Source: an uncultured Bacteroidota bacterium
GTDB lineage: Bacteria > CLD3 > SB21
DNA: 38,472 nucleotides
Reading direction: 5' to 3'
NCBI GenBank assembly: GCA_964535295.1
Contig: CAZHUW010000006.1
Location: forward strand, 1-38,472
Part shown: one piece after another, positions 7,115 to 25,909 of the stretch
Position numbering within the stretch: position 1 is the first letter of the stretch
Layout: each line of letters begins with the position of its first letter
Made by a program: the position numbers and the translations under genes
Notes under the pieces: model-generated
The model's input: the letters and a program-made list of their open reading frames with translations, nothing else
The model's database searches: none
Told to the model about the DNA's origin: nothing

Positions 7115-9475
7115 TTATTGTTTCTTCTGCTGGATACGCTTGAGCAATTCCTCCCGATAGGCCTGCTCGTATTGGCGAACGAGTTCCTTGAACGTCGGTT
7201 TATTTTTAACCTGGATGAATAGCTTATTCTTGTCCAGTTCGGCAAAATCCGAGAAATTATTATGAAAAGCTTTCAGCATCCAGCGCGCCGCTCCGGCTTC
7301 ATCATTCCGCGCCGCAAATACCGATGCGATGCGATACGGCGTGATATCGGATAAAGAATCCAATGCCCACTGAAGTTCATACTGCGACAAAGCAAGATCC
7401 ATTTTATTCTGTTGAAGCAGGATATCCCCGTAGTCCCCATACAAACGCGCATCGGGATTTTGAGCCCGGTTCATTAAGCGTATCCCTTCCATAATCTCTT
7501 TCTCAGCATCTTCCCATCGCTCAAGCGAGAAATAAACATGTGAAAGCGTTTGTCTTGAATAATAATTGGATGAATCCAACGAAACCGCTTTTTGTGCATT
7601 TTGCAGCGCTCTATCGTATTTTTTCATTTCTTCGAATGTCCGCGCCATTTCAAGATACACGTCAATATAATTCGGAAAGGTCCTTACGGCTTTTTCAAAA
7701 GCATTGACCGCTTCCTCGTTCTGTTTGTTCCCTTTGAGTGCCAGCCCGTATTGGTAATAGGATTCGGCATTCGGATACATACGGATACTTTTGAGAATTT
7801 CCAGCTGCGCGTCCTCGAATTTTTTCTGTTTGACCAGGATCCTGCCGATCATCAAGTGACAGCGGGCAAAATTATAACTATCTTTCGCATCGTCCGCATA
7901 GATGCGATAATAATCCAGCGCCTGCGGAAGCTTGTCGGAACGATAATACGATTCTGCCAGATAAAATCTGAGCCGCAGCGCATCCGGTCTTAATTTAAGT
8001 GCGATCTGAAATTGATTGGCCGCCTCTGCAAAATCATTAAGGTAATACAACGAAGCGTAACCTAAGGCCGAGCGATATAAAAAATCTTCCTGCGCGTTCA
8101 GTTCGCCTTCCAGGAGCGATTCATTCAGGGAATCCGCCAGCGTCTGAACGGGTTTGATATCTTTGCGGTTCTTGGAGAGGAATTGAAAGATCTGGATCGG
8201 GTTCTCTTTTGAATTCTCCAATTCCGGCTTGACGATCACTCCCTGCATAAAATAAGCGGCGGCCTGTTTGACATTTCCCTGCAGATAATTCAGATTCGCG
8301 TACGAGACCATGGCGAAAGCGTCCGAAGGATCGGCATCGATGATCTGGAGATACAGGGCTTTGGCCTCGTCATAATTGGTTTTGAGTTCATATAGTCGCG
8401 CCAGGTTCTTCCGCGCCGGGATCTCGTACTTATTGATCCGGGCCGCCTGCATAAAGTATTCTTTCGCTTTGGCGGAGTCCTTCAAACCCATGGACGAAAG
8501 TCCGAGTAAATTCAGTGCCGGGCTTTCCAACGCATTCAGTTTTAAAGCCTGGTTCGCGTATTGTTTCGACAATTCATAATTCTTGTCGTCGTAGGCGCAA
8601 TAGCCGAGGCGAACCTGCACGGCAGCGCTCGGATTCAGAGCCAGTTCTTTTTCATAATATCCTTTTGCTTTCCGGGTATCATTCAGATGATAATAATAGA
8701 TATCTCCGACGGCGCTGTTGACATCCTTTGCCAACGGCCATTTGTCCTGGTAACTTTTATAAATATTAAACGCGCGTTCGTATTCTTTTTTGATTACATG
8801 GACCTGGGCAAGTTCGGCGTACGCCTGGAAAAAATTTCCGTCCTCATGGATCGCATTCTGAAAATACTCAGCGGCTTTTTGAAGCCGTTCATCGGTTTGT
8901 GTAGCCGAACGCTGCGCTTTTCCCGCCATATAATTACGGTAGGCCCCAAAGCTTTTTGTCAGCTGAATTTTTTGAACTGCCTTCTGGATAGCCTCTTTAT
9001 TCACCGTAAGGGTGGCTTTGAGAAACTCCGATACTGCTTTTTCATGTACCGAAAAGATCTGATCCGTTATTTCACCTTTGAATACCGATTTCTTAAGCAG
9101 ATATTTTTTTTGAATGACGCTGACGGCATCGACGACGTATTCGATCTTATTTTTGTCGATCCTGGCCGTGATCAGAACGGCATACTGGAAAGGAGAGGCC
9201 GGTTTGTTCAATACCGCGTCGAGTGTGAGTTGATCTTTTTTGACGTTCTTAGCCGAATAACTATGCAGGTGTCCCTGAAATCCTGAAGAGCCGAGCGCCT
9301 TATCAAATGATTCCAATACCGCATACGCTGCCCAGCCGTTGCTGTCCGTTATGATATCATTTTCATGAATAAGCGTCAGGTCCACATGGGTAACTTCATT
9401 CTGAGCCAACAATGTTCCGGCGCTTATAAATGCTAAAACTAAACGGCTCAAAAAAAAGAAAGTTATTTTTTTCAT
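7115..9475 (-). CDS. Exported tetratricopeptide-repeat protein
   Basis: N-terminal signal peptide (MKKITFFFLSRLVLAFISAGTLLAQ) followed by many TPR units (A...LG..Y, A.A.F..A...P). Start overlaps the esterase stop (ATGA). Confidence 0.9.
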   Translation of the reverse strand: MKKITFFFLSRLVLAFISAGTLLAQNEVTHVDLTLIHENDIITDSNGWAAYAVLESFDKALGSSGFQGHLHSYSAKNVKKDQLTLDAVLNKPASPFQYAVLITARIDKNKIEYVVDAVSVIQKKYLLKKSVFKGEITDQIFSVHEKAVSEFLKATLTVNKEAIQKAVQKIQLTKSFGAYRNYMAGKAQRSATQTDERLQKAAEYFQNAIHEDGNFFQAYAELAQVHVIKKEYERAFNIYKSYQDKWPLAKDVNSAVGDIYYYHLNDTRKAKGYYEKELALNPSAAVQVRLGYCAYDDKNYELSKQYANQALKLNALESPALNLLGLSSMGLKDSAKAKEYFMQAARINKYEIPARKNLARLYELKTNYDEAKALYLQIIDADPSDAFAMVSYANLNYLQGNVKQAAAYFMQGVIVKPELENSKENPIQIFQFLSKNRKDIKPVQTLADSLNESLLEGELNAQEDFLYRSALGYASLYYLNDFAEAANQFQIALKLRPDALRLRFYLAESYYRSDKLPQALDYYRIYADDAKDSYNFARCHLMIGRILVKQKKFEDAQLEILKSIRMYPNAESYYQYGLALKGNKQNEEAVNAFEKAVRTFPNYIDVYLEMARTFEEMKKYDRALQNAQKAVSLDSSNYYSRQTLSHVYFSLERWEDAEKEIMEGIRLMNRAQNPDARLYGDYGDILLQQNKMDLALSQYELQWALDSLSDITPYRIASVFAARNDEAGAARWMLKAFHNNFSDFAELDKNKLFIQVKNKPTFKELVRQYEQAYREELLKRIQQKKQ

Positions 9476-13702: not shown

Positions 13703-15322
13703 ATGGACGAAACCAAAAATACCGGTTCCTCCGACGCGCACCCCGGCAAATCCGAAACACCCCAAACGGATTCTTCATCGGTCACTCCCCACAAGTTTAT
13801 CCAGGCGGAAGTTCAGAAATTCGAAAATATTTTCGAGAAAGGCCTCCGAAGATATTCTGCGGCTGAGATCACCATCTTCGGTTTTGCGTGCGCTATTCTA
13901 TTAGGATCGTTGATCCTGTATCTCATTGAAAATCTATCCGATAACCCGCTGGGCTATGTTGATGCCTTGTTCATTTCAACTTCAGCTATTTGTGTCACCG
14001 GTCTCACCTCTATAGATTTCAGCAAATTCACATTCGCCGGACAGTTCGTTACGATGCTGCTCATTCAGATCGGCGGATTCGGCGTTGTAACGGCATTCCG
14101 TCTCTTATGGATCGGACGTTCTAGCGATCTTTCACCGGGTTCGGCTCAAACTCTGGGCTCCGTGATGGACGTGGACGGAGGCCATCAAACCGTTTTGCAG
14201 GTCCTGGCTTCCACGGCTAAGATCACACTGGCTATCGAAGGACTCGGGTGTATCTTTATGTATTATCACATGCAGGACCGGGTCGAATCACCGCTCTGGT
14301 TCTCGGTTTTTCATACGATTTCCGCTTTTAATAATGCGGGATTCGGGCTGAATGCGGATAATTTGATGCAGTACCGCGGCGATGTATTTTTCAATTTGAT
14401 CGTTGCCGCCCTGGTCATTTTCGGAGGAATCGGTTATCCGGTACTGCTCGGCATCGAACAGTTCTTCTTATTGACACTGCACAAAGCGCTTGGTTTTTCT
14501 GAGGCGCTGATGGAAATGGTAGCGATCCGCAAGCCCGAGCGGTTAGGTCTGGTAGAACCGTTTTACAACTTTGTTGATAAACTTTATTTGAGAGCCAAAA
14601 AGATCAAAGAAGAACTTGCCGGCGTCGCATCGCCTCTCCAAATGAAGATCGTGTTTTACGGAACGATATTTCTCATCTTTGCCGGAATGATCTTTACGCT
14701 GATATTCGAATGGCATGACGAGCGTTCATTAGGCACGTTGTCGTTAGGCGATAAGATACTTACTTCGTTCTTCCATTCAGTGACAACACGAACGGCCGGG
14801 TTCAATACGATCGATATAGGTGCCCTCCAGATACGAACATTATTGCTTTACATTTTATTAATGTTCATCGGCGCGGCGCCTCAGGGTACGGCGGGTGGAA
14901 TTAAGATCCCGACCTTCGTCACGATGCTGGGTTATATCCGCAGTTCCTTCCGCGGAAGAACTCGTGTTGCGGTCTTCAATTACGTCGTTTCTAAAACTTC
15001 CGTAGGCAACGCCGTCAAACTCTACGTACTCAGTTCAACTTTCGTTCTGGGAGTGATCCTCATGATGTCGATCATCGAGGTACAATTTTCGCTCGTTCAA
15101 ATGGCTTTTGAGACAGTGAGCGCCTTCGGTACGGTCGGTTTGTCCACCGGCATAACTATGTTGCTGAGCCCCTCATCAAAATTACTTCTTGTAGCCACCA
15201 TGTTTACCGGCCGTGTCGGCCTTCTGACCATCGGAAGCGCTATCATCAAACCCGCCGATGAGATCGTTCAGACACCGCCAGGCACGTGGACCGATGACGG
15301 AATGAAGCTGCAGATCGGGTAA
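13703..15322 (+). CDS. Trk/Ktr family potassium uptake membrane subunit (KtrB/TrkH-like)
   Basis: Four pore loops, each with the filter Gly: SAICVTGL, SAFNNAGF, TTRTAGFN, SAFGTVGLS. Also GTAGGIK and MFTGRVG. Confidence 0.93.
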   Translation: MDETKNTGSSDAHPGKSETPQTDSSSVTPHKFIQAEVQKFENIFEKGLRRYSAAEITIFGFACAILLGSLILYLIENLSDNPLGYVDALFISTSAICVTGLTSIDFSKFTFAGQFVTMLLIQIGGFGVVTAFRLLWIGRSSDLSPGSAQTLGSVMDVDGGHQTVLQVLASTAKITLAIEGLGCIFMYYHMQDRVESPLWFSVFHTISAFNNAGFGLNADNLMQYRGDVFFNLIVAALVIFGGIGYPVLLGIEQFFLLTLHKALGFSEALMEMVAIRKPERLGLVEPFYNFVDKLYLRAKKIKEELAGVASPLQMKIVFYGTIFLIFAGMIFTLIFEWHDERSLGTLSLGDKILTSFFHSVTTRTAGFNTIDIGALQIRTLLLYILLMFIGAAPQGTAGGIKIPTFVTMLGYIRSSFRGRTRVAVFNYVVSKTSVGNAVKLYVLSSTFVLGVILMMSIIEVQFSLVQMAFETVSAFGTVGLSTGITMLLSPSSKLLLVATMFTGRVGLLTIGSAIIKPADEIVQTPPGTWTDDGMKLQIG

Positions 15323-15362
15323 ATCAATTTTAGATAGAAGATTTACTTTCAACTTTTCACAT

Positions 15363-15404
15363 AAACAAAGACCAAATTCTATCGAATTTGGTCTTTGTTT
15401 TTTC
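15363..15404. terminator. Bidirectional intrinsic terminator
   Basis: Perfect 17-bp stem AAACAAAGACCAAATTC-TATC-GAATTTGGTCTTTGTTT plus a T-tract, between convergent genes. Confidence 0.85.
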
Positions 15405-15419
15405 GAACAATCGTTAACT

Positions 15420-16079
15420 TTACTTTAACGTCGCATTCAAAAACTTATTGAACGGATGCAGTACTTTGAATACATCGGCACAGTGTTTTGCAAAAGTATC
15501 CGACAAAATCATTTTGTCATTCATTTTGTGAACAACTACCAAACTTTTGAATTTCAGCGTTTCTGCAGCCGGGTGATCCGGATCGAATCCGGGCGGCAGC
15601 CGTTTTAACTTTTCTCCTTCCATCTCTGTGAAGTATTTTTTGAACCGACCGTCCTTATTGATCTTTTCAAACGCCTTCCAATTTTTATACACATGATTCC
15701 GAAGGGCTTTTAGCCAATCCGAATCCGGCATATGTGCGCCGCCTGCCAGGAAACTGCCGTTAGGTTCGACATGAAGGTAGTAACCGGCGCCCGCTTCAGC
15801 TTTTTTACCGTCCTTCACCATCCACGCGCCCATATTCGTCTTGTACGGCGATTTATCCTTGGCAAATCGGACATCTTTATAGATGCGGAAGATGCAATCT
15901 CTTGGCGACAGATCGGCAATGTCTTTGTCAAATTTCCCGATCCGCCCGATGACGTCCTCGACCAAGGATTCAAATTCGTCTTTTACCAGGAGGTAATCGG
16001 CTTTGTGTGCATTGAACCAATCGCGATTATTGTTTTTCTTAAGTTCTTTGAAAAAGGTAATCGTTTTGAATGTTAACAT
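15420..16079 (-). CDS. DUF2461 family protein
   Basis: FFKELKKNNNRDWF, IFRIYKDVRFAKDKSPYK, GYYLHVEP..SFLAGG, LKRLPPGF. Confidence 0.92.
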   Translation of the reverse strand: MLTFKTITFFKELKKNNNRDWFNAHKADYLLVKDEFESLVEDVIGRIGKFDKDIADLSPRDCIFRIYKDVRFAKDKSPYKTNMGAWMVKDGKKAEAGAGYYLHVEPNGSFLAGGAHMPDSDWLKALRNHVYKNWKAFEKINKDGRFKKYFTEMEGEKLKRLPPGFDPDHPAAETLKFKSLVVVHKMNDKMILSDTFAKHCADVFKVLHPFNKFLNATLK

Positions 16080-16155
16080 GTGAATCCGGTGTTTTGCTTT
16101 AAATTTTCTTCAGTATAAAATTATTTAACAATCGAATCAATCACTTTGAATGATA

Positions 16156-16189
16156 TAAAAAAATCCCGCACGCCAAAAGCATACGGGAT
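16156..16189 (-). terminator. Intrinsic terminator after the porin gene
   Basis: Minus strand ATCCCGTATGC-TTTTG-GCGTGCGGGAT (two G-U pairs) followed by TTTTTT. Confidence 0.8.
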
Positions 16190-16219
16190 GATTCTCAGAA
16201 TTAACAGTTATTTTTTCTA

Positions 16220-17584
16220 TCAGAATCTGTATTGCACACGGAACGTGAACACATTGTCTTTCACATCTTTCCTGAACCGCACCAGTGCTGAAGAAGTTGC
16301 AGCGCTATTTACTTTTTCATTTTGAACCATTTCATAATAGGCCGTTAATTTCACATTATCGTCCCAATGGTAGATCCAGCCAAGGCCGATAGTGTTGAAC
16401 TTGATATCCGCAGGCGATGTTTTGCTCCCGACACCGATGTCCGAACCTTTGACGCCCGTATTCGGATCGTAGATATCGTATTTGACAACGGCCTGGTTCT
16501 TCTTCCCGGCATTCTGAATATACATGACATACATACCTGCGAATTTACGCCTATAAACCGGCTGCACATCCGGTATGGATTTGACCGAAGTCCCGCTAAC
16601 CGTCTGAACGGTACCCGGATTATAGAAAGAACCCGAAGAGGCGGTGCCGGGCTGATCCCCGGAAATATATTCTCCGCGGATCTGCATCGCGCCGATCACA
16701 GGAAGCTCATAATAGGCCTGCGCATCGAAGCCCAGGTATTTTCTATCGAAGGACGCAAGAATATTACTTGAAGACGAATCGCGCACAAAGTTCTTATTGC
16801 TGATGCGGTACACCTCCGCTGAATTGCTTGTTATTTTTCCGGAATACATGGAAATGCCGCCGTCGACAACCAGATTCATAGTTTTCACAGGCAGTGTAAA
16901 TCCAAAACGGCCTATGATATCTTTGTTATCGTCGTTCTCATTGGCTGTATTCAGGACACCGTTGAAAACACCCGCCTTTAAGTTAAAATGGCTCCATAGG
17001 CCGGTTTCTTTCTTTGGAAATATCTCTGCTTTAACGCCGATCTCACGCTCACCGGGAAAAAGCGTCTGATACATTCTTGAACGCTCGGGCGATTCGCGTT
17101 TTGATGACGAATAAGAGATCTCATAACCGAACGGCCGATCTGAGGCGCCGATAACGAACGTAGCCGTTTTGAACCACGGCTCCGTCACCGCAACATACGC
17201 GTCTTTGATCCCAACGCCGTTTTGCGTCACATCGACCTGCAAGACGAATTGAGAAAGCCCGTTATCATACACTGCTTTGAGCCTTCCGCGGCGCACGGCA
17301 AAACGCGATTTGACATTAGACGGGAATGTCCCACCTGCAAAATCGCCGGCTTTCCACTGCGACGTACCCTGGCTGTCCGTGAATTGGTACTGTGCCTGGA
17401 TGTAACCTGAGAACTTCAGTTTATTGGTTTTGTCCACCGATTTTTTAACATCCTGAAGCGCTTTCTTAAGCTCCTCAATTTGTTCGTCGCCCGGCTTTTC
17501 CGTCGAGCTGCCGGTCTGTTCCTGAGCCGTCACCATGCGGTGTGCCGCGAACAGAAGTATCAGAATCCACGCAAATTTCTTCAT
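16220..17584 (-). CDS. Outer-membrane porin, phosphate-selective OprO/OprP-like
   Basis: Signal peptide, short coiled-coil, FSGYIQAQYQ, FAVRRGRLK, IKDAYV, FGYEISYSSSKRESPERS and a C-terminal Phe beta-signal (VQYRF). GGAGG RBS. Confidence 0.8.
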   Translation of the reverse strand: MKKFAWILILLFAAHRMVTAQEQTGSSTEKPGDEQIEELKKALQDVKKSVDKTNKLKFSGYIQAQYQFTDSQGTSQWKAGDFAGGTFPSNVKSRFAVRRGRLKAVYDNGLSQFVLQVDVTQNGVGIKDAYVAVTEPWFKTATFVIGASDRPFGYEISYSSSKRESPERSRMYQTLFPGEREIGVKAEIFPKKETGLWSHFNLKAGVFNGVLNTANENDDNKDIIGRFGFTLPVKTMNLVVDGGISMYSGKITSNSAEVYRISNKNFVRDSSSSNILASFDRKYLGFDAQAYYELPVIGAMQIRGEYISGDQPGTASSGSFYNPGTVQTVSGTSVKSIPDVQPVYRRKFAGMYVMYIQNAGKKNQAVVKYDIYDPNTGVKGSDIGVGSKTSPADIKFNTIGLGWIYHWDDNVKLTAYYEMVQNEKVNSAATSSALVRFRKDVKDNVFTFRVQYRF

Positions 17585-17627
17585 GATCCCTCCATTAGTA
17601 TTAGAAAACTATTTTTAAATGCGCGGA

Positions 17628-17683
17628 AATGTAGCCTGAGTGTGTTACAATTTGATTATTGAAATATTATCAAATTGTTAAAT
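17628..17683 (-). promoter_or_regulatory. Pho-box-like array (four 7-bp half-sites, 11-bp period) plus -10 element of the porin gene
   Basis: Minus strand ATTTAAC-AATT-TGATAAT-ATTT-CAATAAT-CAAA-TTGTAAC-N10-TACATT. Confidence 0.7.
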
Positions 17684-17722
17684 TTGCACTAAGCTTTTTT
17701 TATCGTTTGATGTTCTCTGATG

Positions 17723-17757
17723 AAAAAAATACCCCGTAAACTAAATGTCTACGGGGC
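17723..17757 (-). terminator. Intrinsic terminator after the 160-aa lipoprotein gene
   Basis: Minus strand GCCCCGTAGAC-ATTTA-GTTTACGGGGT followed by ATTTTTTT. Confidence 0.8.
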
Positions 17758-17824
17758 CTTGCGTGGTTCCGATTACTTTCTAATCGGTGTTTCTCCTACC
17801 TAACAAAGGAGAAAATTTATTTCA

Positions 17825-18307
17825 TCAATCTCTGTAGCTTAAAAATTTGTACTCGCCCTTTCTTTCTATGATCGAACCGCAAAACTTAAGTGCTTTTATA
17901 TTTCCGTCCTTGTCGGTCACATTCAAAACCGCAGAAGTGTAAATTGTGAAAGTAGCATATCTTTCTGAATTCTCTTCAAATGCTACGTCAACGAGCCGAT
18001 ATTCCTGCCCTCCGATATCGGTCAGTGCGCGCGTCATGCCTTTGATCGTTTTCCCATTCAGATTATCCCATGCAAAATCAAACGGAAAGTTCTTTTTACT
18101 GGCTGGAAATTCCGGCCACAGATAGTTTTTAAATTCGTCATGATTGATTCGAAGCGCATCCAGTTCTTTAATGTCATTCGATTCGATGGCCATAAGAACC
18201 TTCTTAGCCAGATCGTCAATTGAATCTCCGGAATGAGCCAGATCACGTTTCTGACATGACGAAAGAATCAAAATTACAAAGAGCGGTAAAAGCATTAGGT
18301 TTTTCAT
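17825..18307 (-). CDS. Hypothetical lipoprotein
   Basis: Lipobox LSSC after a hydrophobic signal. Alpha-then-beta layout; no family recognised. Confidence 0.8.
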   Translation of the reverse strand: MKNLMLLPLFVILILSSCQKRDLAHSGDSIDDLAKKVLMAIESNDIKELDALRINHDEFKNYLWPEFPASKKNFPFDFAWDNLNGKTIKGMTRALTDIGGQEYRLVDVAFEENSERYATFTIYTSAVLNVTDKDGNIKALKFCGSIIERKGEYKFLSYRD

Positions 18308-18324
18308 AGAATAAAAAATACGGA

Positions 18325-18449
18325 CTTATCGGATTTACTCACATGCCATTCTGAACTTGATTCGGAATCTGCACTAGAGCGTTGTGAAAATGAGATTCTG
18401 AAACAAGTTCAGAATTACAATTTTTATAAAAGTGAGTAAATCCGATAAG
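18325..18449. repeat. Nested inverted repeat / REP-doublet-like element
   Basis: Perfect outer 18-bp inverted repeat (CTTATCGGATTTACTCAC at 18325-18342 and its complement at 18432-18449). Inner 23-bp inverted repeat (18348-18370 vs 18393-18415, 21/23 match); each inner arm is itself a hairpin (ATTCTGAA-CTTG(A/T)-TTC(G/A)GAAT). Confidence 0.85.
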
Positions 18450-18462
18450 CAGTTAAAATTAG

Positions 18463-18496
18463 GGATGCAGGTTGCACGCAAATACAACCTGCATCC
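18463..18496 (-). terminator. Hairpin after the beta-helix lipoprotein gene (terminator or mRNA-stabilising stem)
   Basis: Perfect 12-bp stem GGATGCAGGTTG-N10-CAACCTGCATCC with a weak U-tract. Confidence 0.6.
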
Positions 18497-18511
18497 GTGG
18501 TACATTAAAGT

Positions 18512-20440
18512 TTAATTCGTGGCCCAGGTCGTCCAGGTGGCTAACCAGTTCGTCGTATTGAATGCGCCGATATAGGTCGCGGCAACATCAAAGAAACCGT
18601 CATTCGGAGGCGTACCGCCGGTCACAACGACCGTGGGAACCGGGTTCGGCATCGTTCCGTTGAACGGGTTCGCATTCGCTGCGGTATTCACACTGGTGAA
18701 GTTCGGGTTCTGAACCAATATATTCCATGAACCGATAATAGAGCGAAGCCCGATGGTATCATAGTTCTGCGCAGTGGTCTTTAGCGCAACCTGCGTAATA
18801 TGTTTGGCCGGATTAACGGCGTTATTGAACATGATAATGTTTTTTGCTGTTGCCGTACCGTTAGCGGCGTTGGTGCTGTCGGCCGTGCCGTCAAGGGTCA
18901 AACCTATACGGTTAAAGTACGATACGATACCGTTATTGGCGTCATACTGCGTATTGCGCCGCCAGTACATGCCTTCGTTGTTATCATCATTATTCTTGTC
19001 ATCCGTTCCGTTACCGCCAACAAAAGTGAAATTCCAAATGGTTGGTTTAGAAACCGGCGTATTAGAACTTCCGGACGCATCGTTATCGGCTTCCATGCCG
19101 CGGTTTCCGAGAGCCTGATCTTGTATACCGAACACATACTGCAATTTGACCTGAGTTCCAAAATCCGTGTCGAACATGTCATCGTCGCAACCGGAGGCAA
19201 CTAGGTATTTGCCTTTGACCGTTCCGCCAAACCATTCGAATCCGTCATCGGCGATCATGTGCGATTGAATATGATCCAGGACCGTGTTGCTTCCAACGGC
19301 ATTGAAAGTCCAGCCGTTGACTTCATTATCGGGCGTTACCTTCGTTCCGCCAAATTCAACACGCACGTATTGGAAAATTCCGCTGCTCATCGTGTCGCCG
19401 ATCGAAGAGTTCAATGTGAACCCACCGTAGCCGGGACCGTAGGTTCCGGTATTACCTTCGCCAACGCCGATCCCGCCGGGCACATTCAGGCTGGCCGCTC
19501 CGTTCAACACGATCCCGCCCCACAAACCGCGCGTACGCGTTCCCGCAGCGCGTTCGGTTGTAAACACGATCGGCTGAGCCGCCGTTCCAAGAGCATATAT
19601 TTTTCCATTGGCTTTGGACACAGTGCTGGCATTGGTGGCCTGCGCGCGAAGCGTAATGATCACGGCTCCGCTGCCTTCTACCGCTTCGATTCGTGTTCCG
19701 GCCGGAATGGTCAAAACGGCGCCGGGAACGATCTGATAAGGACCATTGAGTTTATAAACAATATTCGGATCCAGTGTAAGGCTCGTATTGAGATTGCCCG
19801 ATAAAGTGACCGACTGTGTCATGGCAAAATTAGCCGTTGCGGTTACATTCGCCGTCACGGTAACACCGGTAGTAGAATCGGCAACATAACCGTCGCGCGA
19901 TACCGCTACCGTGTAAGTTCCAACGAATACGCCCGTGAATGAATAGGTTCCGTTCGCGGCTGTTGTTGCTGTACGGCCTGAACTTGCCGTAGTGCCGAGA
20001 ATCTTAACTTCAGCGCCTTCTAAATTGCCGCCCCCGCCGGTCACAGTACCGGAGATCGTTCCTGTCTGTTCGCTGGTCGCCGGAATCGTAGATACACCTA
20101 CTGTAACATTAGGATCGTTCTCAACTACGGATACATTTGTGCTGGTCGTAACATAATCGGCGCCGGAGAAGGTCAAGGTATAGGAACCGACCTCAACGCC
20201 TGTAAATGTATAAACGCCATCCGCGCCCGTTGTATCGGACATGGCCGGTGTAGTCGAGATCGTTACGATAATATTGGCGATCGGCTGGTTAGCACTGTTC
20301 TTAACTGTACCGGTCACGGTCGCACCTGTGGAACTGTCATTATTTTTGTCATCGCTGCAACCGGTCATCGTCATGTTCACAGCGAACATAACCGTAATTG
20401 CCAGTGCAGACAATAAATTTGTCATTTTGTTTCCGTTCAT
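18512..20440 (-). CDS. TBDR-associated lipoprotein: two carboxypeptidase-regulatory-like Ig domains plus an Asp-rich parallel beta-helix domain
   Basis: Start refined to 20440 because a GGAGG RBS lies 4 nt upstream (ORF track starts at 20485). Lipobox MTGC; GTISGTV / G.Y.FTGV..G.YT Ig motifs; beta-helix motifs GLWGGIVLNG, YVRVEFGG, ADDGFEWFGG, CDDDMFDTDFG, GMEADND; C-terminal YIGAF...NWLATWT.W. Confidence 0.85.
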   Translation of the reverse strand: MNGNKMTNLLSALAITVMFAVNMTMTGCSDDKNNDSSTGATVTGTVKNSANQPIANIIVTISTTPAMSDTTGADGVYTFTGVEVGSYTLTFSGADYVTTSTNVSVVENDPNVTVGVSTIPATSEQTGTISGTVTGGGGNLEGAEVKILGTTASSGRTATTAANGTYSFTGVFVGTYTVAVSRDGYVADSTTGVTVTANVTATANFAMTQSVTLSGNLNTSLTLDPNIVYKLNGPYQIVPGAVLTIPAGTRIEAVEGSGAVIITLRAQATNASTVSKANGKIYALGTAAQPIVFTTERAAGTRTRGLWGGIVLNGAASLNVPGGIGVGEGNTGTYGPGYGGFTLNSSIGDTMSSGIFQYVRVEFGGTKVTPDNEVNGWTFNAVGSNTVLDHIQSHMIADDGFEWFGGTVKGKYLVASGCDDDMFDTDFGTQVKLQYVFGIQDQALGNRGMEADNDASGSSNTPVSKPTIWNFTFVGGNGTDDKNNDDNNEGMYWRRNTQYDANNGIVSYFNRIGLTLDGTADSTNAANGTATAKNIIMFNNAVNPAKHITQVALKTTAQNYDTIGLRSIIGSWNILVQNPNFTSVNTAANANPFNGTMPNPVPTVVVTGGTPPNDGFFDVAATYIGAFNTTNWLATWTTWATN

Positions 20441-20552
20441 TTTTCCTCCATTTGATTTGTATAAACTGTTATTACGTTTTATCATCTTGTCTAATTTAGA
20501 GTTTTATATTAAACCCGTATTATGCCCGTGCTGTGATTGTGTTATCTTTTAT

Positions 20553-23351
20553 TTAGAAGTCATAGGTAACTGAAGTCGAGAAACTCATTCCCGGCTTATA
20601 AGTGTGCGTCGTGTATTTTCCCATCTTAAAGGTCACCGTATCGTCCAGAATGTTCTTCCAGCTTCCTTTAAGTTTCAGATTCTTCGTCAGTTTTTGCGCG
20701 ACGGTCAGATCCAGCTGGTTATAAGGCTGCTCGTACACATCGTCGTATACCTTATTGCCATCGGCGTCATTTAATTTGGTTCCGATCTCTGCGATGCGCT
20801 TTCCGAATATATTATAGGAGAGGTTGATATCTGTCCGCGAAACCGCATTCGCATAATTCAATCCAATATTGACCACATAAGGCGACTGGCCCTGCATCGG
20901 ACGTTTTTTGCTGGCAACAAAATCGGGAGAGAATAAGGTCGGATCATCGCTGCCGAGCGTATAGACCTTGATGGCATTTTTCTGAGTTAGCCTGGAACGG
21001 ATCAGGGACATATTCGCCGTCACGCTGAAATCTTTGAGCGTTTCAGCCACATGGATCAGGCTCGCCCGCAGATCCAATTCAAGTCCAATATTGGTCGCAT
21101 TGCCGCCATTAACGGGAACCGGATCGCCCGACGGGTTGCCCGGATTGGGAAGAAGGAATTTTTCAATCGGATTCTCAAAAGTCTTATAGAAAAAGCTGGC
21201 CGCAAGAAGTTCCCCGGAGATCGGGAAGAATTCCCAACGTAAATCATAATTGCGTATATAGCTGGACTTCAAAAAAGGATTGCCGTAGGTGCTGCGGCGG
21301 TAATCATCATAACGGAACGGCGCGAGTTCACGGAACTGCGGACGGGAAGTGGTCTGGCTGTAGCCGACCCGGATATTCATTCTTTCGCTAAGCGAGTACA
21401 CGACGTTGAGCGCCGGGAAAAAATCCTTATTCGTATATTTTGGCGAGAGCTGCTTATTGGCAGAACCCGATGCCGGATCGATGGAATTCAATTCCGTACG
21501 CACATTCTCGTACCGCACACCGCCGACAAACCGCCATTTTTTATCCAGCGGCAAGTCTGCCATGATATATCCTGCGACGGTGTTTTCATTGGCCGTATAC
21601 TGATCATTGGGCTGGGTATTGTCTTCAAAGTTCACGAGCCCGTTGGCAATGTTATCCGAACTGAATAACTGATCCGGCTGTTGAGCACGAACCGCATCGG
21701 CAAAATTGGAATACGCATAACGGTGCGCATCAAAATCACGGTCTTTAAGACGGACCAGCGATCCGATCTTGAGTTTGGAATTTTTGACCAATTCCATCGG
21801 GATCGTCCAATCGACCCCTGTATTTATTTCCTTGTCAACCAGATCGGAGAAAAACCTCGAATTATTTGATGTTCCGAAAGCTTCATAAGTGTTCAGACCT
21901 TCATTGAGCACATACGCTGTCTGGCGCGTATCCGGTTCGTTCCGATCCGCCTGGGAATACGCCGCATGCCATTCGACCTTGCTTTTCAGCAGCTGATTCA
22001 TCTGATGTTCTCCGAGCAACTGCATTGAGAGAAGCGCGCGCTGTTGGTAGCGTAAACGGGTAAAACGGACGTCGCCACCCGAACTGCCGTTCTTAACTCC
22101 CGAGGTTGTGCTTGCCTCGTCATCGGATTGTATGTTATAAACCGTTTTCACGCCGATCTTGTTATTGGAATTGAGTTTATAATTAAGGTCTACGAGCGCG
22201 CCCCACAGCACGGAATAACTACCCTTTGTCGTCCTGTAATCGTAAGACGGAGTTCCGTCGAATTGCGGAAAAAACTCATTTTCAGTGCGGGTATTAAAGT
22301 CTGAACTGTAGGTCAGAGACGCGAGAAAACCAATGTTGGACTGATCACCTACGCTGTTGCCAACCGAAAAACTGAATCCGGAATTATTAGCAACTTGCCG
22401 GTTAGTCGGGCTCCAGATATTTTGAAAACGGCTGTTATACAATGCCTTCTGACTGTTTGACGTGGAACCGTTGAAGTCCGGTATGTTCGGCCTTTGTCTT
22501 TTGCCGTCGTCAAATCCAAGAAAATCCGTTCCGCTGCCCTGGTAGCGCGGGATCTTTGAAAACGAGGCGTTGTTGAAACCGGTTGAAACGCCGGCCGCCA
22601 TGAAAAAAGTTTCCGGAAATTCTTTGGTATTGATCTTCACCAAACCGCCGGAAAAATCGCCGGCCATATCGGGATTGTAGGTTTTAACGACCGTAATATT
22701 CTGAATAGATCCGGAAGGAAATATATCCATCGGGATTATTTTCTTTTCGGGTTCCGGGCTCGGAATTTCGATCCCGTTCAATTGCGCATTACTGTACCGT
22801 TCGCCCAATCCGCGGACGTACACGTATTTATTGCCTACGACGGAAAGTCCGGTAACACGTTTAAGCGCATCGCCGGCGTTCTTGTCGGGCGTTTTGCTGA
22901 TCTGCTCATTGCCGATCGCATCGCTTACGACGATCGCTTTTTTCTGCTGAACCAGCAGCGCGCTGGAGGCCGCACGATCCGCTTTGGCTTCGACGACAAG
23001 TTCCTCGCCCATGATCGATTCGGGTTCCAGCGAGATCTGCAAATTGTACGTTAAGCCAGCGGTAACGGGAACGGGGGTGATGGTCTTTTTCACATAGGAG
23101 ATGTAAGAAAACACAACGGCATAGGAGCCTTCGGGAACATTGCTTACAAAAAAGTTGCCGTTCAGGTCCGATGAGGCGCCGTATTTGGTTCCGGCCAATA
23201 TGACGTTACAACCGATCAGCGGATCGCCATTCGATGCGTCGACGATCTTTCCAGCAATTTTGCCGGTTTTTACCGGGCCGGTTTGCGCTGTCAGATGAAA
23301 TGGTAAAAACAGCACGGAGGCAATGGTTAAGAGTAATCTTAGGTTTTTCAT
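20553..23351 (-). CDS. TonB-dependent receptor with N-terminal carboxypeptidase-regulatory-like domain
   Basis: Signal peptide, GKIAGKIVD...PLIGCNV, plug domain (AGDALKRVTGLSV, YVRGLGERYS, DIFPS..IQNITVVKT), SRPQFRELAPF, NYDLRWEFF and C-terminal Phe (VTYDF). Confidence 0.95.
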   Translation of the reverse strand: MKNLRLLLTIASVLFLPFHLTAQTGPVKTGKIAGKIVDASNGDPLIGCNVILAGTKYGASSDLNGNFFVSNVPEGSYAVVFSYISYVKKTITPVPVTAGLTYNLQISLEPESIMGEELVVEAKADRAASSALLVQQKKAIVVSDAIGNEQISKTPDKNAGDALKRVTGLSVVGNKYVYVRGLGERYSNAQLNGIEIPSPEPEKKIIPMDIFPSGSIQNITVVKTYNPDMAGDFSGGLVKINTKEFPETFFMAAGVSTGFNNASFSKIPRYQGSGTDFLGFDDGKRQRPNIPDFNGSTSNSQKALYNSRFQNIWSPTNRQVANNSGFSFSVGNSVGDQSNIGFLASLTYSSDFNTRTENEFFPQFDGTPSYDYRTTKGSYSVLWGALVDLNYKLNSNNKIGVKTVYNIQSDDEASTTSGVKNGSSGGDVRFTRLRYQQRALLSMQLLGEHQMNQLLKSKVEWHAAYSQADRNEPDTRQTAYVLNEGLNTYEAFGTSNNSRFFSDLVDKEINTGVDWTIPMELVKNSKLKIGSLVRLKDRDFDAHRYAYSNFADAVRAQQPDQLFSSDNIANGLVNFEDNTQPNDQYTANENTVAGYIMADLPLDKKWRFVGGVRYENVRTELNSIDPASGSANKQLSPKYTNKDFFPALNVVYSLSERMNIRVGYSQTTSRPQFRELAPFRYDDYRRSTYGNPFLKSSYIRNYDLRWEFFPISGELLAASFFYKTFENPIEKFLLPNPGNPSGDPVPVNGGNATNIGLELDLRASLIHVAETLKDFSVTANMSLIRSRLTQKNAIKVYTLGSDDPTLFSPDFVASKKRPMQGQSPYVVNIGLNYANAVSRTDINLSYNIFGKRIAEIGTKLNDADGNKVYDDVYEQPYNQLDLTVAQKLTKNLKLKGSWKNILDDTVTFKMGKYTTHTYKPGMSFSTSVTYDF

Positions 23352-23415
23352 ACTTTTCTCTCACTTGGTTAGGTTTAGTAAAACACACGCTATGCAGCTT
23401 GGGTTTAGGTGCACA

Positions 23416-23491
23416 AATATAACAGTGCATTGTTAGCGCGAAATTACACGATTATTATGGTTTCGCTTGATTTGTTATGAAATTGTTGCCT
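23416..23491 (-). promoter_or_regulatory. Pho-box-like array (2+3 half-sites, 11-bp period) plus -10 element of the TBDR gene
   Basis: Minus strand AGGCAAC-AATT-TCATAAC-N13-CCATAAT-AATC-GTGTAAT-TTCG-CGCTAAC-N10-TATATT(TG). Confidence 0.65.
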
Positions 23492-23531
23492 GAAAAGGAG
23501 CTGCCGATATATAGAATGGCTGTTTTTTAAC

Positions 23532-23560
23532 TTGCTTATTCCTGACACCGGATGTACATT
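23532..23560 (+). promoter_or_regulatory. Putative sigma70 promoter of the DUF151-htrA genes
   Basis: TTGCTT-N17-TACATT. Confidence 0.55.
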
Positions 23561-23658
23561 ATTTAGCACTCATTGTGGGACATTGAAGTTTTAGATCCGA
23601 AGTAAAACCCAGGGCACGTCAAATCCTTGGGTTATTTTGTCTTGAAGAAAGTGTTTTC

Positions 23659-24291
23659 ATGGAATCGGTTCATGATACATCGGTCCCGCCGGAGAGTTTT
23701 TCAGCGGAACAGCCCAAGGCCAACGGGGATGTTATGCGCCGCATCGTATTGATCGTTTTATCTGCTATGCTTTTTTTTGGCCTGGCGGGGATTTTTTCGA
23801 AGAACATTTTGTTTGACCGCAGTTCCGTGTTGATGACCGGGGATTCGAATGTAACGGAGATGAAAGTTCTCGGTGTTGTGATGGATTCCCTCAGCGAAAC
23901 GCCGGCGGTTTTTTTGTACAGCGAAAAGGAAGAGATATTCCTCCCGATCTGGATCGGCGCCAACGAAGCGGTGGCTATTCAGGCGGAACTCTCCGGCGTC
24001 AAATCGCCGCGCCCTCTGACCAACGACCTTCTGAAGGATGTCATTGAAAAACTGGATGCTACGCTCGAAAAAATTGTCATAACAAAAGTACAGAACGACA
24101 CGTATTACTCGATACTTTATATCAAAGGAAATAAAGGCGCTTTGGAGATCGATGCGCGGCCCAGCGATGCTTTGGGGCTGGCCATCCGTTTCAAATGCCC
24201 GATCTGGGTCAATGACGAGATCGTAAAAAAATACGGCATGTCGTCGCAGGATGCGGCAAAAAAACGTCTGGAAAAAAGTAAGAAAATTTAA
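23659..24291 (+). CDS. Bifunctional-nuclease (DUF151/BFN) domain protein with N-terminal transmembrane/signal segment
   Basis: LPIWIGANEAVAI, PRPLTNDLL, NDTYYSIL, IDARPSDALGLA..KCPIWV. Hydrophobic segment IVLIVLSAMLFFGLAGIF. An alternative start at 23734 (MRRIVL) is plausible. Confidence 0.88.
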   Translation: MESVHDTSVPPESFSAEQPKANGDVMRRIVLIVLSAMLFFGLAGIFSKNILFDRSSVLMTGDSNVTEMKVLGVVMDSLSETPAVFLYSEKEEIFLPIWIGANEAVAIQAELSGVKSPRPLTNDLLKDVIEKLDATLEKIVITKVQNDTYYSILYIKGNKGALEIDARPSDALGLAIRFKCPIWVNDEIVKKYGMSSQDAAKKRLEKSKKI

Positions 24292-24298
24292 ATACGAA

Positions 24299-24391
24299 CT
24301 CAGAGGCACAGAGAACACGAAGAGACCTGAAATATTGTTTAAGCTTTTTAAATTGAAACTCATGAAACCCTATGCTCTCTGTGTCCCTGTG
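24299..24391. repeat. CACAGAG-type short inverted repeat element
   Basis: Left arm CTCAGAGGCACAGAGAACACGAAG; right arm CTCTCTGTGTCCCTGTG. Lies between DUF151 and htrA. Confidence 0.65.
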
Positions 24392-24442
24392 ATAAAAACT
24401 GGGCACGACTAAACTGAAAAACAATTCGAGAAAGAGATACCT

Positions 24443-25909
24443 ATGCGTCAACGACTGCCTCTTGTTATTTTAACCGCCGTACTTGCGATCGGGATTTTTG
24501 CCGGATTAATACTGAGTTCCAAACTGGATCTGACCGGGTTCACCCGTGCGGACGATAAACCCGATGTTAATTTTGCTTCTGCCGCAACCGACTTGGTCCA
24601 GATTGAATCTTCGGGCAAAGCGTTTGCACAGATAGCCAATCAGGTCAAGCCTGTGGTGGTCACGATAATCAGTGAAAAAAAAGTTTCCGTGGGCGGCGGT
24701 TTCGACGAGATATTCCGAAAATTCCATAAGAACATTCCTGAACAAGGGCTGGGGTCCGGCGTGATCGTTCACCCCGACGGCTATATTCTTACCAATCATC
24801 ACGTTGTGACCGAAGCCGATCAGATCACCGTAAGACTTCTCGATAAACGTGTCTTCAGGGCGGAATTACTCGGTTCCGATCCGCTCACCGATATCGCGCT
24901 TATCAAGATCGACGCGGAAAAACTTCCGGCCGCCAAATTCGGCAATTCGGATAATATCGATGTCGGCGAATGGGTACTGGCGATCGGTTCTCCTCTCAGC
25001 CTTAATTCCACCGTCACTGCCGGTATCATCAGCGCGCTCGGGCGTCAGATCGATATTATCGGCGACCAATACGGGGTCGAGAGTTTTATTCAGACCGATG
25101 CCGTGATCAATCCGGGCAACAGCGGCGGCGCATTGGTCAATATCAAAGGCGAACTCATCGGCATCAATACCGCGATCGCTACAAAGACAGGGCTTTATCA
25201 GGGTTACGGATTTGCCGTACCCTCCAACATCGCCAAACATGTGATGGAAGATATCATCCGGTACGGACAGACCGTTCGCGGGTACGTGGGCGTGGGCATC
25301 AAGGATGTGGATGCCACGTACGCTAAAGCGGTCGGGTTGACCACGGCGCAGGGCGTATTAGTTGAATCGCTGGTGGATAATGGCGCAGCGAAAGAAAGCG
25401 GTCTCGAAGAAGGCGATGTAATACTTGAAATAGACGGACGAAAATTAAATCAATCCAACGATCTGCAGGCCTATGTGGCTCTTAAACAGCCCGGCGATGC
25501 CGTAAAACTGCTTATTCAGCGCAACGGGAACAGGATCACAAAATCCGTTACTCTCAAATCCGTTGACGGATCGACCACACCGCCCCCCGTAAAGACGCAA
25601 AATAATTTGAAGAAAGAAATAAAGGACGAGATCGGCGAGGGCATGGGATTTGAAGTGGAGGAAACTTCGGATAATGCGCTGGCGGCCAAAAACGTGATCG
25701 TGACCAATTCTTCCTGGCAAGCCAAAGAGCAAAGCGTTTACGAAGGATTTATCGTTACTCGCGTGAACAATAGACCTATTTCCAACATGGATGATTATAG
25801 ATCTGCGATCAGGGACCTCAAGAACGGCGACGCGGTTATTCTGCATTTGATGACCGCACGGCGCGAGAACAAGATCATCACGGCCGTTGAAGTGAAGAAG
25901 AAAAATTAA
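24443..25909 (+). CDS. htrA: HtrA/DegP (Do family) periplasmic serine protease with two PDZ domains
   Basis: N-terminal TM, GLGSGVIV, ILTNHHVV (His), DIALIKI (Asp), IQTDAVINPGNSGGALVN (Ser), then PDZ domains. Confidence 0.95.
   Translation: MRQRLPLVILTAVLAIGIFAGLILSSKLDLTGFTRADDKPDVNFASAATDLVQIESSGKAFAQIANQVKPVVVTIISEKKVSVGGGFDEIFRKFHKNIPEQGLGSGVIVHPDGYILTNHHVVTEADQITVRLLDKRVFRAELLGSDPLTDIALIKIDAEKLPAAKFGNSDNIDVGEWVLAIGSPLSLNSTVTAGIISALGRQIDIIGDQYGVESFIQTDAVINPGNSGGALVNIKGELIGINTAIATKTGLYQGYGFAVPSNIAKHVMEDIIRYGQTVRGYVGVGIKDVDATYAKAVGLTTAQGVLVESLVDNGAAKESGLEEGDVILEIDGRKLNQSNDLQAYVALKQPGDAVKLLIQRNGNRITKSVTLKSVDGSTTPPPVKTQNNLKKEIKDEIGEGMGFEVEETSDNALAAKNVIVTNSSWQAKEQSVYEGFIVTRVNNRPISNMDDYRSAIRDLKNGDAVILHLMTARRENKIITAVEVKKKN

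Follow-up and report, generated by a model that had tools for sequence, protein, structure and literature searches.

We analysed a stretch of 38,472 nucleotides from an uncultured Bacteroidota bacterium (GenBank assembly GCA_964535295.1, contig CAZHUW010000006.1, positions 1 to 38,472), hereafter called the window. The relatives of this organism are labelled phylum CLD3, and the sequence occurs in bioreactor, activated-sludge, and wastewater metagenomes. The locus of interest comprises four co-oriented genes on the minus strand, which encode a TonB-dependent receptor (TBDR), a beta-helix lipoprotein, a small lipoprotein of 160 aa, and a porin (Table 1). A preliminary description of this DNA, made without database searches, had proposed that these genes form an outer-membrane scavenging system of the phosphate-starvation (Pho) regulon. 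Here, the genes were compared with their relatives and their promoters were evaluated as candidate Pho-box promoters.

Table 1. Features of the locus. Positions refer to the window, except for the counterparts of the 3' element, which are given in the coordinates of the loci named.
Feature	Position	Strand	Description
TBDR promoter, distal pair of units	23474..23488	-	CAAC 23488-23485, TAAC 23477-23474
TBDR promoter, proximal units	23432..23457	-	TAAT 23457-23454, TAAT 23446-23443, TAAC 23435-23432; 11-bp period
TBDR promoter, -10/-7 element	23414..23421	-	TATATTTG (TATATT(TG)); 10 nt past the proximal unit
TBDR, 932 aa	20553..23351	-	signal peptide, CarboxypepD_reg, Plug, 22-strand-type barrel (Pfam)
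Third array, weaker	20493..20544	-	TAAC, CAGC, TAAT, TAAT in phase at 20544-20501, then TAAATT 20498-20493
Predicted surface lipoprotein, ~642 aa	18512..20440 (ORF to 20485)	-	lipobox MTGC, two CarboxypepD_reg immunoglobulin-like domains, C-terminal Beta_helix_4
Stem-loop	18463..18496	-	15-bp stem, weak T tail; right after the stop of the beta-helix lipoprotein
Small lipoprotein, 160 aa	17825..18307	-	lipobox LSSC; clade-restricted
Conserved 3' element	17723..17813	-	hairpin TTCTCC-N11-GGAGAA (17813-17791), second hairpin, intrinsic terminator 17757-17731 and T-run
Counterparts of the 3' element	L001 12509-12533; L003 12502-12524; L006 12467-12489; L007 12461-12482; L042 1553-1577		
Porin promoter, Pho-box units	17644..17680	-	TAAC 17680-17677, TAAT 17669-17666, TAAT 17658-17655, TAAC 17647-17644; exact 11-bp period
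Porin promoter, -10	17628..17633	-	TACATT; 10 nt past the proximal unit
Porin, 454 aa	16220..17584	-	signal peptide, N-terminal coiled coil, beta-barrel
Terminator 3' of the porin gene	16163..16189	-	

The porin and TBDR genes share a promoter architecture, as the preliminary description had claimed. Strict arrays, defined as at least three TAAY half-sites (Y, C or T) spaced with an 11-bp period, were sought on both strands of the 38-kb window. The scan returned these two promoters only, both in the correct orientation, and no arrays were found in the window at periods of 9, 10, 12, or 13 bp. The nine half-sites counted earlier were recovered, of which the porin promoter has four and the TBDR promoter five (three plus two), and in both cases the proximal half-site ends exactly 10 bp upstream of the -10. 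The 11-bp period attributed to the TBDR array held for the proximal triple; the distal pair lies 20 bp from this triple, not 22, and is thus 2 bp out of phase. The terminator that separates the small lipoprotein gene from the porin promoter was also confirmed. As for the claim that neither promoter has a recognisable -35, our sigma-70 scan detected no hexamer resembling TTGACA at a distance of 16-18 nt from the two proposed -10 elements; this is a weak check, as the usual promoter consensus of the host lineage was not established here.

For a comparison with relatives, we collected 80 loci (1.26 Mb in total) from species-representative genomes, which were retrieved with an alignment of porin homologues and are labelled Ignavibacteria, Bacteroidota, Chlorobi, Calditrichota, and Fibrobacterota. 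The Pst and Pho genes were marked by tblastn with the proteins of Escherichia coli K-12. Homologues of PstC and PstA were found in 62 loci, of PstB in 57, and of PhoU in 49. A regulator similar to PhoB occurs in 36 loci, with a median identity of 38% to E. coli PhoB over the full length. The usual gene order, in most genomes, was [phoB phoR], array, porin, pstS, array, and pstC pstA pstB phoU. In the 1.26 Mb, 96 strict arrays were found at period 11, against 1.6±1.2 in shuffled sequences, and the other periods within 8-14 gave 0-4 arrays. Of the 96 arrays, 80 directly precede a porin (53), pstC (15), TBDR (9), or pstS (3) gene, and among the remaining ones several stand at cut locus ends after pstS. 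The enrichment at pst promoters that the earlier proposal had called for was therefore found in dozens of related genomes, at pstS and pstCAB-phoU as well as at porin genes beside phoBR. Three of the remaining arrays precede open reading frames (ORFs) with metallophosphoesterase-like N-termini, as judged by eye (L060, several sites; L083, at about 1872). These ORFs likely represent further phosphoesterases of the Pho regulon in Ignavibacteria-type genomes.

The pooled unit of these arrays reads c-t-T-A-A-C-A-(A/T)-T-n-c. Of 80 arrays, 44 have a TAnnTT element exactly 10 nt past the proximal unit, and 14 have it at 21 nt. TAnnTT(TG), the consensus that follows the arrays in relatives, is also the better description of the -10 of the two window promoters, and we take it to resemble the Bacteroidota-type -7 box.

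We then scored the window with a matrix built solely from pst promoters (18) of other genomes; its training set excluded the window and its orthologues as well as every porin and TBDR promoter. With three units, the porin promoter ranked first (18.6 bits) and the TBDR promoter second (17.7 bits); the next site scored 12.1 bits, and the null maximum was 11.5±2.3 bits. With four units, the score of the porin promoter was 21.5 bits, while the null maximum was 8.4-9.1±2.8 and the highest null value 17.5. Because the arrays front pst and porin genes in relatives and the matrix trained on pst promoters recovers the promoters of the window, the arrays are the predicted Pho boxes of these lineages, with the core TTAACA.

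In Bacillus subtilis, the PhoP boxes are likewise TTAACA-like repeats. The PhoB box of E. coli is located 10 bp upstream of the -10 (PMC1906773, PMC4415409), and the cyanobacterial SphR box consists of three copies of CTTAACCT at an 11-bp period (PMC1906773). The arrays described here resemble these boxes in having at least three or four head-to-tail units and an 11-bp period, with a TTAAC core as in Bacillus and cyanobacteria, and they resemble the E. coli box in placing the proximal unit 10 nt before the -10, in the position of a -35. They differ from the E. coli, Bacillus, and cyanobacterial promoters in the downstream element, which is TAnnTT(TG). Our literature search returned no description of a Pho box for CLD3, Ignavibacteria, or Bacteroidota.

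Loci orthologous to the whole cluster were retrieved via the beta-helix protein. The identities of these matches are 85% for L001 and L002, 77% for L003, 75% for L006, 66% for L004 and L005, and 58% for L007. All of the retrieved orthologous loci retain the TBDR, the beta-helix lipoprotein, and the small lipoprotein, and some retain the porin. The arrays are kept upstream of the TBDR gene in L001, L003, L004, L006, and L007, and upstream of the porin gene in L001 and L003, so that the predicted conservation at both promoters was observed. The distance from array to -10 is constant across orthologues, while the bases of the spacer vary. The distal pair of the TBDR promoter occupies the matching place in L001, L003, L006, and L007. 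Since the 9-bp junction within the TBDR array is conserved in orthologues and the gap in L007 holds an intact unit, the true layout of the TBDR promoter is 2 + 4 units. Phosphorus-linked neighbours also occur in the more distant loci: in L004, the TBDR gene is preceded by a gene for a PstS-like PBP_like_2 protein, and in L007, the cluster is followed by a Phosphodiest (NPP-type) gene.

A third array, overlooked in the preliminary description, lies in the gap that separates the TBDR gene from the beta-helix lipoprotein gene. Its four-unit score in the window is 8.8 bits, which alone is not significant. The orthologous sites score 19.8 bits in L001, 19.2 bits in L006, and 15.0 bits in L003, and the Hymenobacter locus L091 has a four-unit array at the equivalent place. 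In this Hymenobacter pair, four-unit arrays precede both the TBDR gene, where the array ends 10 nt before TAGCTTTG, and the beta-helix gene. The third array is thus a probable Pho-box promoter of the lipoprotein gene. An extra promoter at this place would fit the situation in Flavobacterium, in which the lipoprotein mRNA is far above the mRNA of its TonB-dependent transporter (TBDT) (PMC8115612).

The association of the TBDR and beta-helix genes extends beyond the orthologous loci. About 11 of the 80 loci have, next to the porin-pst genes, a full-length homologue of the TBDR (31-35% identity) together with one or two proteins that carry Beta_helix_4 (35-43% identity in the helix domain), which bears out the synteny with pst that had been suggested for this pair. 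Wherever upstream sequence exists, arrays front the TBDR gene of these pst-adjoining pairs. The TBDR gene stands directly upstream of the Beta_helix_4 gene in all loci retrieved with a Beta_helix_4 query, and also in about 11 of those retrieved through the porin. We also considered a SusCD/PusCD-type pair. The TBDR has the Plug domain (PF07715, E 1e-9) and the TonB_dep_Rec barrel (PF00593, E 6e-33), and it scored 217 bits against TIGR01782 (TonB-Xanth-Caul), under the cut-off of 310. It has no SusC-family match, with 54 bits against the cut-off of 368 for TIGR04056 and at the N-terminus only, and the Pfam search detected no SusD domain in the neighbouring lipoprotein. The SusCD/PusCD-type reading was rejected on these two grounds.

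A more distant relative was found in Henriciella (Hyphomonadaceae), where the order is gspO (prepilin peptidase), a gene for a protein with two Beta_helix_4 domains, a TBDR gene, and gspC..J. The Henriciella Beta_helix_4 domains are 32-35% identical to that of the window (E 6e-38), and the TBDRs, in a full-length alignment, are 29% identical over 769 residues (E 2e-85). A layout of elpS (cc0170), cc0171, and gsp genes was described in Caulobacter and Hyphomonas (Le Blastier et al. 2010, PMC2996285), and because the Henriciella gene order equals this layout, we took the Henriciella protein as the one in the ElpS position. ElpS is an outer-membrane lipoprotein made under starvation for inorganic phosphate (Pi), which boosts extracellular phosphatase activity and is itself no phosphatase, while cc0171 was reported as constitutive in Caulobacter crescentus (PMC2996285). 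The window resembles the ElpS (CC0170)/CC0171 locus of C. crescentus in having a predicted surface lipoprotein beside a dedicated TBDR. It differs in that no type II secretion genes lie nearby, the TBDR gene comes first, the lipoprotein has two additional N-terminal immunoglobulin-like (Ig-like) domains, and a clade-specific small lipoprotein follows. The Pho box sequence also differs from that of Caulobacter, and the TBDR has its own array, whereas cc0171 is reportedly constitutive.

Similar pairs were described in Bacteroidota. In Flavobacterium johnsoniae, PUSIV comprises Fjoh_0543-0546 (phoR, phoB, TBDT, and FII), and PUSIII includes Fjoh_3856 (FI) and Fjoh_3857 (TBDT) (Lidbury et al., PMC8115612). 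The lipoproteins FI, FII, and FIII, putative relatives of ElpS, are described as having 'weak homology with pectate lyases'. Together with their TBDTs, they belong to the genes with the strongest induction under Pi depletion, and no gene is induced more than FI (Fjoh_3856) (PMC8115612). The log2 induction is 8.0 for the TBDT Fjoh_0545 and 9.9 for FII, Fjoh_0546 (PMC8115612 and its supplement). In Bacteroides, Price et al. predict that BT4056 is the lid of the TBDT BT4055 (bioRxiv 10.1101/2023.03.17.533168). The window shares with the Flavobacterium and Bacteroides pairs a non-SusD, pectate-lyase-like lipoprotein and a TBDT with CarboxypepD_reg, and with the Flavobacterium pairs a place beside phoBR or pst genes, which is here seen in the loci of relatives. 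The window differs from Flavobacterium in its phylum (CLD3), in the attached porin and 160-aa lipoprotein, and in having no adjacent phoBR genes. Through the ElpS link, the lipoprotein would be homologous to FI, FII, and BT4056. We assign the module to the ElpS/TBDR kind already known from Caulobacter and Flavobacterium (PMC2996285, PMC8115612). What is new here is the CLD3 version, with its attached porin and clade-specific lipoprotein, together with a well-supported Pho-box model for these lineages.

The porin belongs to a large family that is well conserved in these phyla (2801 matches). The preliminary description had called it OprO/P-like. This label suits the family, since 16 of 23 sampled members match Porin_O_P (PF07396; best E 2e-8), and it does not extend by profile to the window porin itself, a distant relative below the threshold; the precomputed Porin_O_P matches on orthologous porins are marked 'faint'. 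A search of the PDB with the single sequence and with the family profile gave no match to the solved OprP and OprO or to any other structure. The phosphate-regulon assignment rests mainly on context, because most of the related genomes examined have the porin gene at the head of their pst operons. Like OprP and OprO, the protein is a predicted outer-membrane beta-barrel porin under predicted Pho control, and its family heads pst operons. It differs from them in its N-terminal coiled coil, and its phosphate selectivity is putative.

The start of the beta-helix lipoprotein is probably the ATG behind GGAGG, 45 nt inside the start of the ORF, which gives a length that agrees with the orthologues; the residues SDD directly follow the lipobox MTGC. 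The records of all orthologues and of a 99%-identical cluster (P0124) list the Beta_helix_4 domain (PF28492). This assignment comes from precomputed records, as the Pfam release searched here does not include the PF28492 model. In AlphaFold models (mean confidence, pLDDT, of 86 for the whole lipoprotein), a right-handed parallel beta-helix comes after two Ig-like domains. Because the Ig-like domains accounted for most fold matches of the full model, the helix domain was predicted again alone (pLDDT 91, pTM 0.92). Its PDB fold matches were pectate and alginate lyases, polygalacturonases, and tailspikes (E>=0.02, TM<=0.32); being generic, they allow no enzyme assignment. A sequence search of the PDB with the lipoprotein returned nothing useful.

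The helix domain has invariant acidic motifs about one helix turn apart, namely D413-D414-x2-E417-x-F419-G420-G421, D435-D436-x2-D439, and E465-x-D467-N468 (in short form, DDGFEWFGG, DDDxFD, and ExDN). These clusters would fit a metal or ligand site. A tentative and rather doubtful extension is that the lipoprotein, rather than a passive lid, is a metal-dependent surface enzyme, which would cut a phosphate-bearing anionic polymer and deliver fragments to the TBDR, with the 160-aa lipoprotein as a third subunit. In that case, the candidate polymers would include teichoic-acid-like material, phosphoglycan, extracellular DNA, and polyphosphate.

Taken with the arrays at the pst genes of relatives, the conservation in orthologues, the synteny, and the ranking by the pst-trained matrix, these comparisons support the earlier interpretation. 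It is very likely that the four genes are members of the Pho regulon, with PhoB-type activation of three promoters, and that they encode a porin and a TonB-powered importer. In this model, the scarcity of Pi would lead to the phosphorylation of a PhoB-type (OmpR-family) response regulator, which would bind head-to-tail on the tandem 11-bp units (core TTAACA/TAAY) occupying the -35 region. The last unit ends 10 nt before the TAnnTT(TG) -10, and the RNA polymerase would be recruited there. Three promoters would be switched on: that of the TBDR, a weaker one at the lipoprotein gene, and that of the porin, which stands behind a terminator. The porin would act as a general anion or phosphate channel. 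The TBDR and the ElpS-type beta-helix lipoprotein would form a TonB-powered uptake pair, in which the two Ig-like domains hold the lipoprotein off the membrane. The probable role of the lipoprotein is to bind or process, on the cell surface, a substrate that contains phosphorus and to hand it over to the barrel, and the 160-aa lipoprotein would be a clade-specific accessory. Here, we infer the identity of the regulator, the induction by low Pi, the surface location, and the cargo.

Several observations weigh against this interpretation. As the preliminary description had stated, the 38-kb window contains no pst or phoBR homologue by tblastn, and the link between motif and pst comes from relatives, not from the genome of the window. 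The TBDR array has a phase slip and scores 10.5 bits as four in-phase units, which alone is not significant; the claim for this promoter rests on the three-unit score, the placement, and the conservation. The window porin has no Porin_O_P match at E<=1. The putative identity of the lipoprotein with CC0170, Fjoh_3856, and BT4056 is indirect, through the Henriciella homologue and published descriptions. Metatranscriptome contigs from four sludge runs covered positions 14000-25000 thinly and patchily, with the neighbours alike and no 5' ends, and are uninformative on regulation. Finally, TAAC/GTTA half-sites at 11-bp spacing also serve OmpR-family regulators such as ArcA, so that the sequence by itself does not name the regulator.

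This last point leads to the alternative that the arrays are operators of another OmpR-family or winged-helix regulator, which would respond to a signal other than Pi or to Pi indirectly. Tandem 11-bp direct repeats are generic to the OmpR family, the window has no regulator gene, and in L026, L031, L041, and L055 a stand-alone Trans_reg_C-like protein, and not a full PhoB, is encoded just upstream of the boxed porin. A candidate would be a receiver-less, 111-aa winged helix-turn-helix protein. However, the motif precedes pstS and pstCAB-phoU in many genomes beside a canonical phoB-phoR, and the regulated genes are classic Pho members. Pi starvation also induces the homologous pairs of Flavobacterium and Caulobacter. 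We therefore regard another regulator as quite improbable. That the arrays are chance matches in AT-rich DNA, and the genes mere neighbours, is hardly credible. The TAAY half-site is short and intergenic DNA is AT-rich, but the count of 96 arrays against 1.6 expected, confined to period 11, and the presence in the window of exactly two strict arrays, both well placed and conserved in orthologues, argue strongly against it. The counts, the placement, and the pst-trained matrix effectively refute a chance origin.

The remaining alternative concerns the cargo. The TBDR/beta-helix pair could import a glycan or another polymer, with the beta-helix protein as a pectate-lyase-like enzyme and Pho control as a secondary trait; such a cargo is compatible with Pho control. 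All fold matches are to right-handed beta-helical proteins (pectate and alginate lyases, polygalacturonases, and tailspikes), and Lidbury et al. raise glycan binding or hydrolysis for FI and FII (PMC8115612). These fold matches are nevertheless weak and generic, and the pair lies within pho loci beside genes for PstS-like proteins, phosphodiesterases, and metallophosphoesterases, not beside genes for carbohydrate-active enzymes. A glycan importer is thus unlikely in our estimate, and the uptake of a phosphorus-containing substrate under Pho control is preferred.

The preferred interpretation would place a phosphate-starvation regulon, with a usable Pho-box model (TTAACA-type units, 10 nt, and TAnnTT), in CLD3 and in neighbouring Ignavibacteria-type and Bacteroidota lineages. 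It also adds weight to the ElpS-type lipoprotein/TBDR pair, seen from Alphaproteobacteria to Bacteroidota and CLD3, as a core and very widespread part of bacterial phosphorus scavenging. The cargo of the pair is the interesting question, and it is relevant to phosphorus cycling in wastewater sludge, the habitat of the organism.

Some further features were observed around these genes. In L041, an ORF at 7377-7712 (plus strand) encodes a 111-aa OmpR-type winged-helix protein, located between a divergent pair of Peptidase_M28 and PstS-like genes and the porin gene. This protein could be a competitor or a co-regulator at Pho boxes. The Peptidase_M28 gene recurs beside TBDR/Beta_helix_4 pairs (L004 4339-6857, L041 4745-7224, and L091 3771-5072), and in L004 and L041 it occurs together with the gene of the PstS-like PBP_like_2 lipoprotein. 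The association may be functional, because the release of ElpS in Caulobacter requires a secreted protease.

Two divergent porin forms share one locus in close relatives. The porins of the window and L003 are 78% identical, and both are 73% identical to the L010 porin, which heads pstSCAB-phoU. The porins of L001 (12805-14154) and L042 (1850-3109) are 50-51% identical to the window porin, whereas the adjoining beta-helix protein is 85-90% identical. This divergence beside a conserved neighbour suggests that the porin gene was swapped by recombination. A plasmid collection contained one unannotated Parabacteroides homologue of the porin.

A gap of 204 nt separates the beta-helix lipoprotein gene from the small lipoprotein gene. 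The stem-loop in this gap could act as a partial terminator and so determine how much lipoprotein transcript is made relative to the downstream transcript, or it could be an RNA-stabilising hairpin. The small lipoprotein has no Pfam or NCBIfam match, and its 19 homologues carry no recorded Pfam domain; in CLD3-type loci, its gene is always 3' of the beta-helix gene. The Rfam search of positions 16000-24000 gave two matches only, both sub-threshold, and the one at the 3' element was to the trpB-motif (28.8 bits). The hairpin loop of this element contains a conserved GTTAGGT, and the element is retained after the small lipoprotein gene even in loci without a downstream porin.

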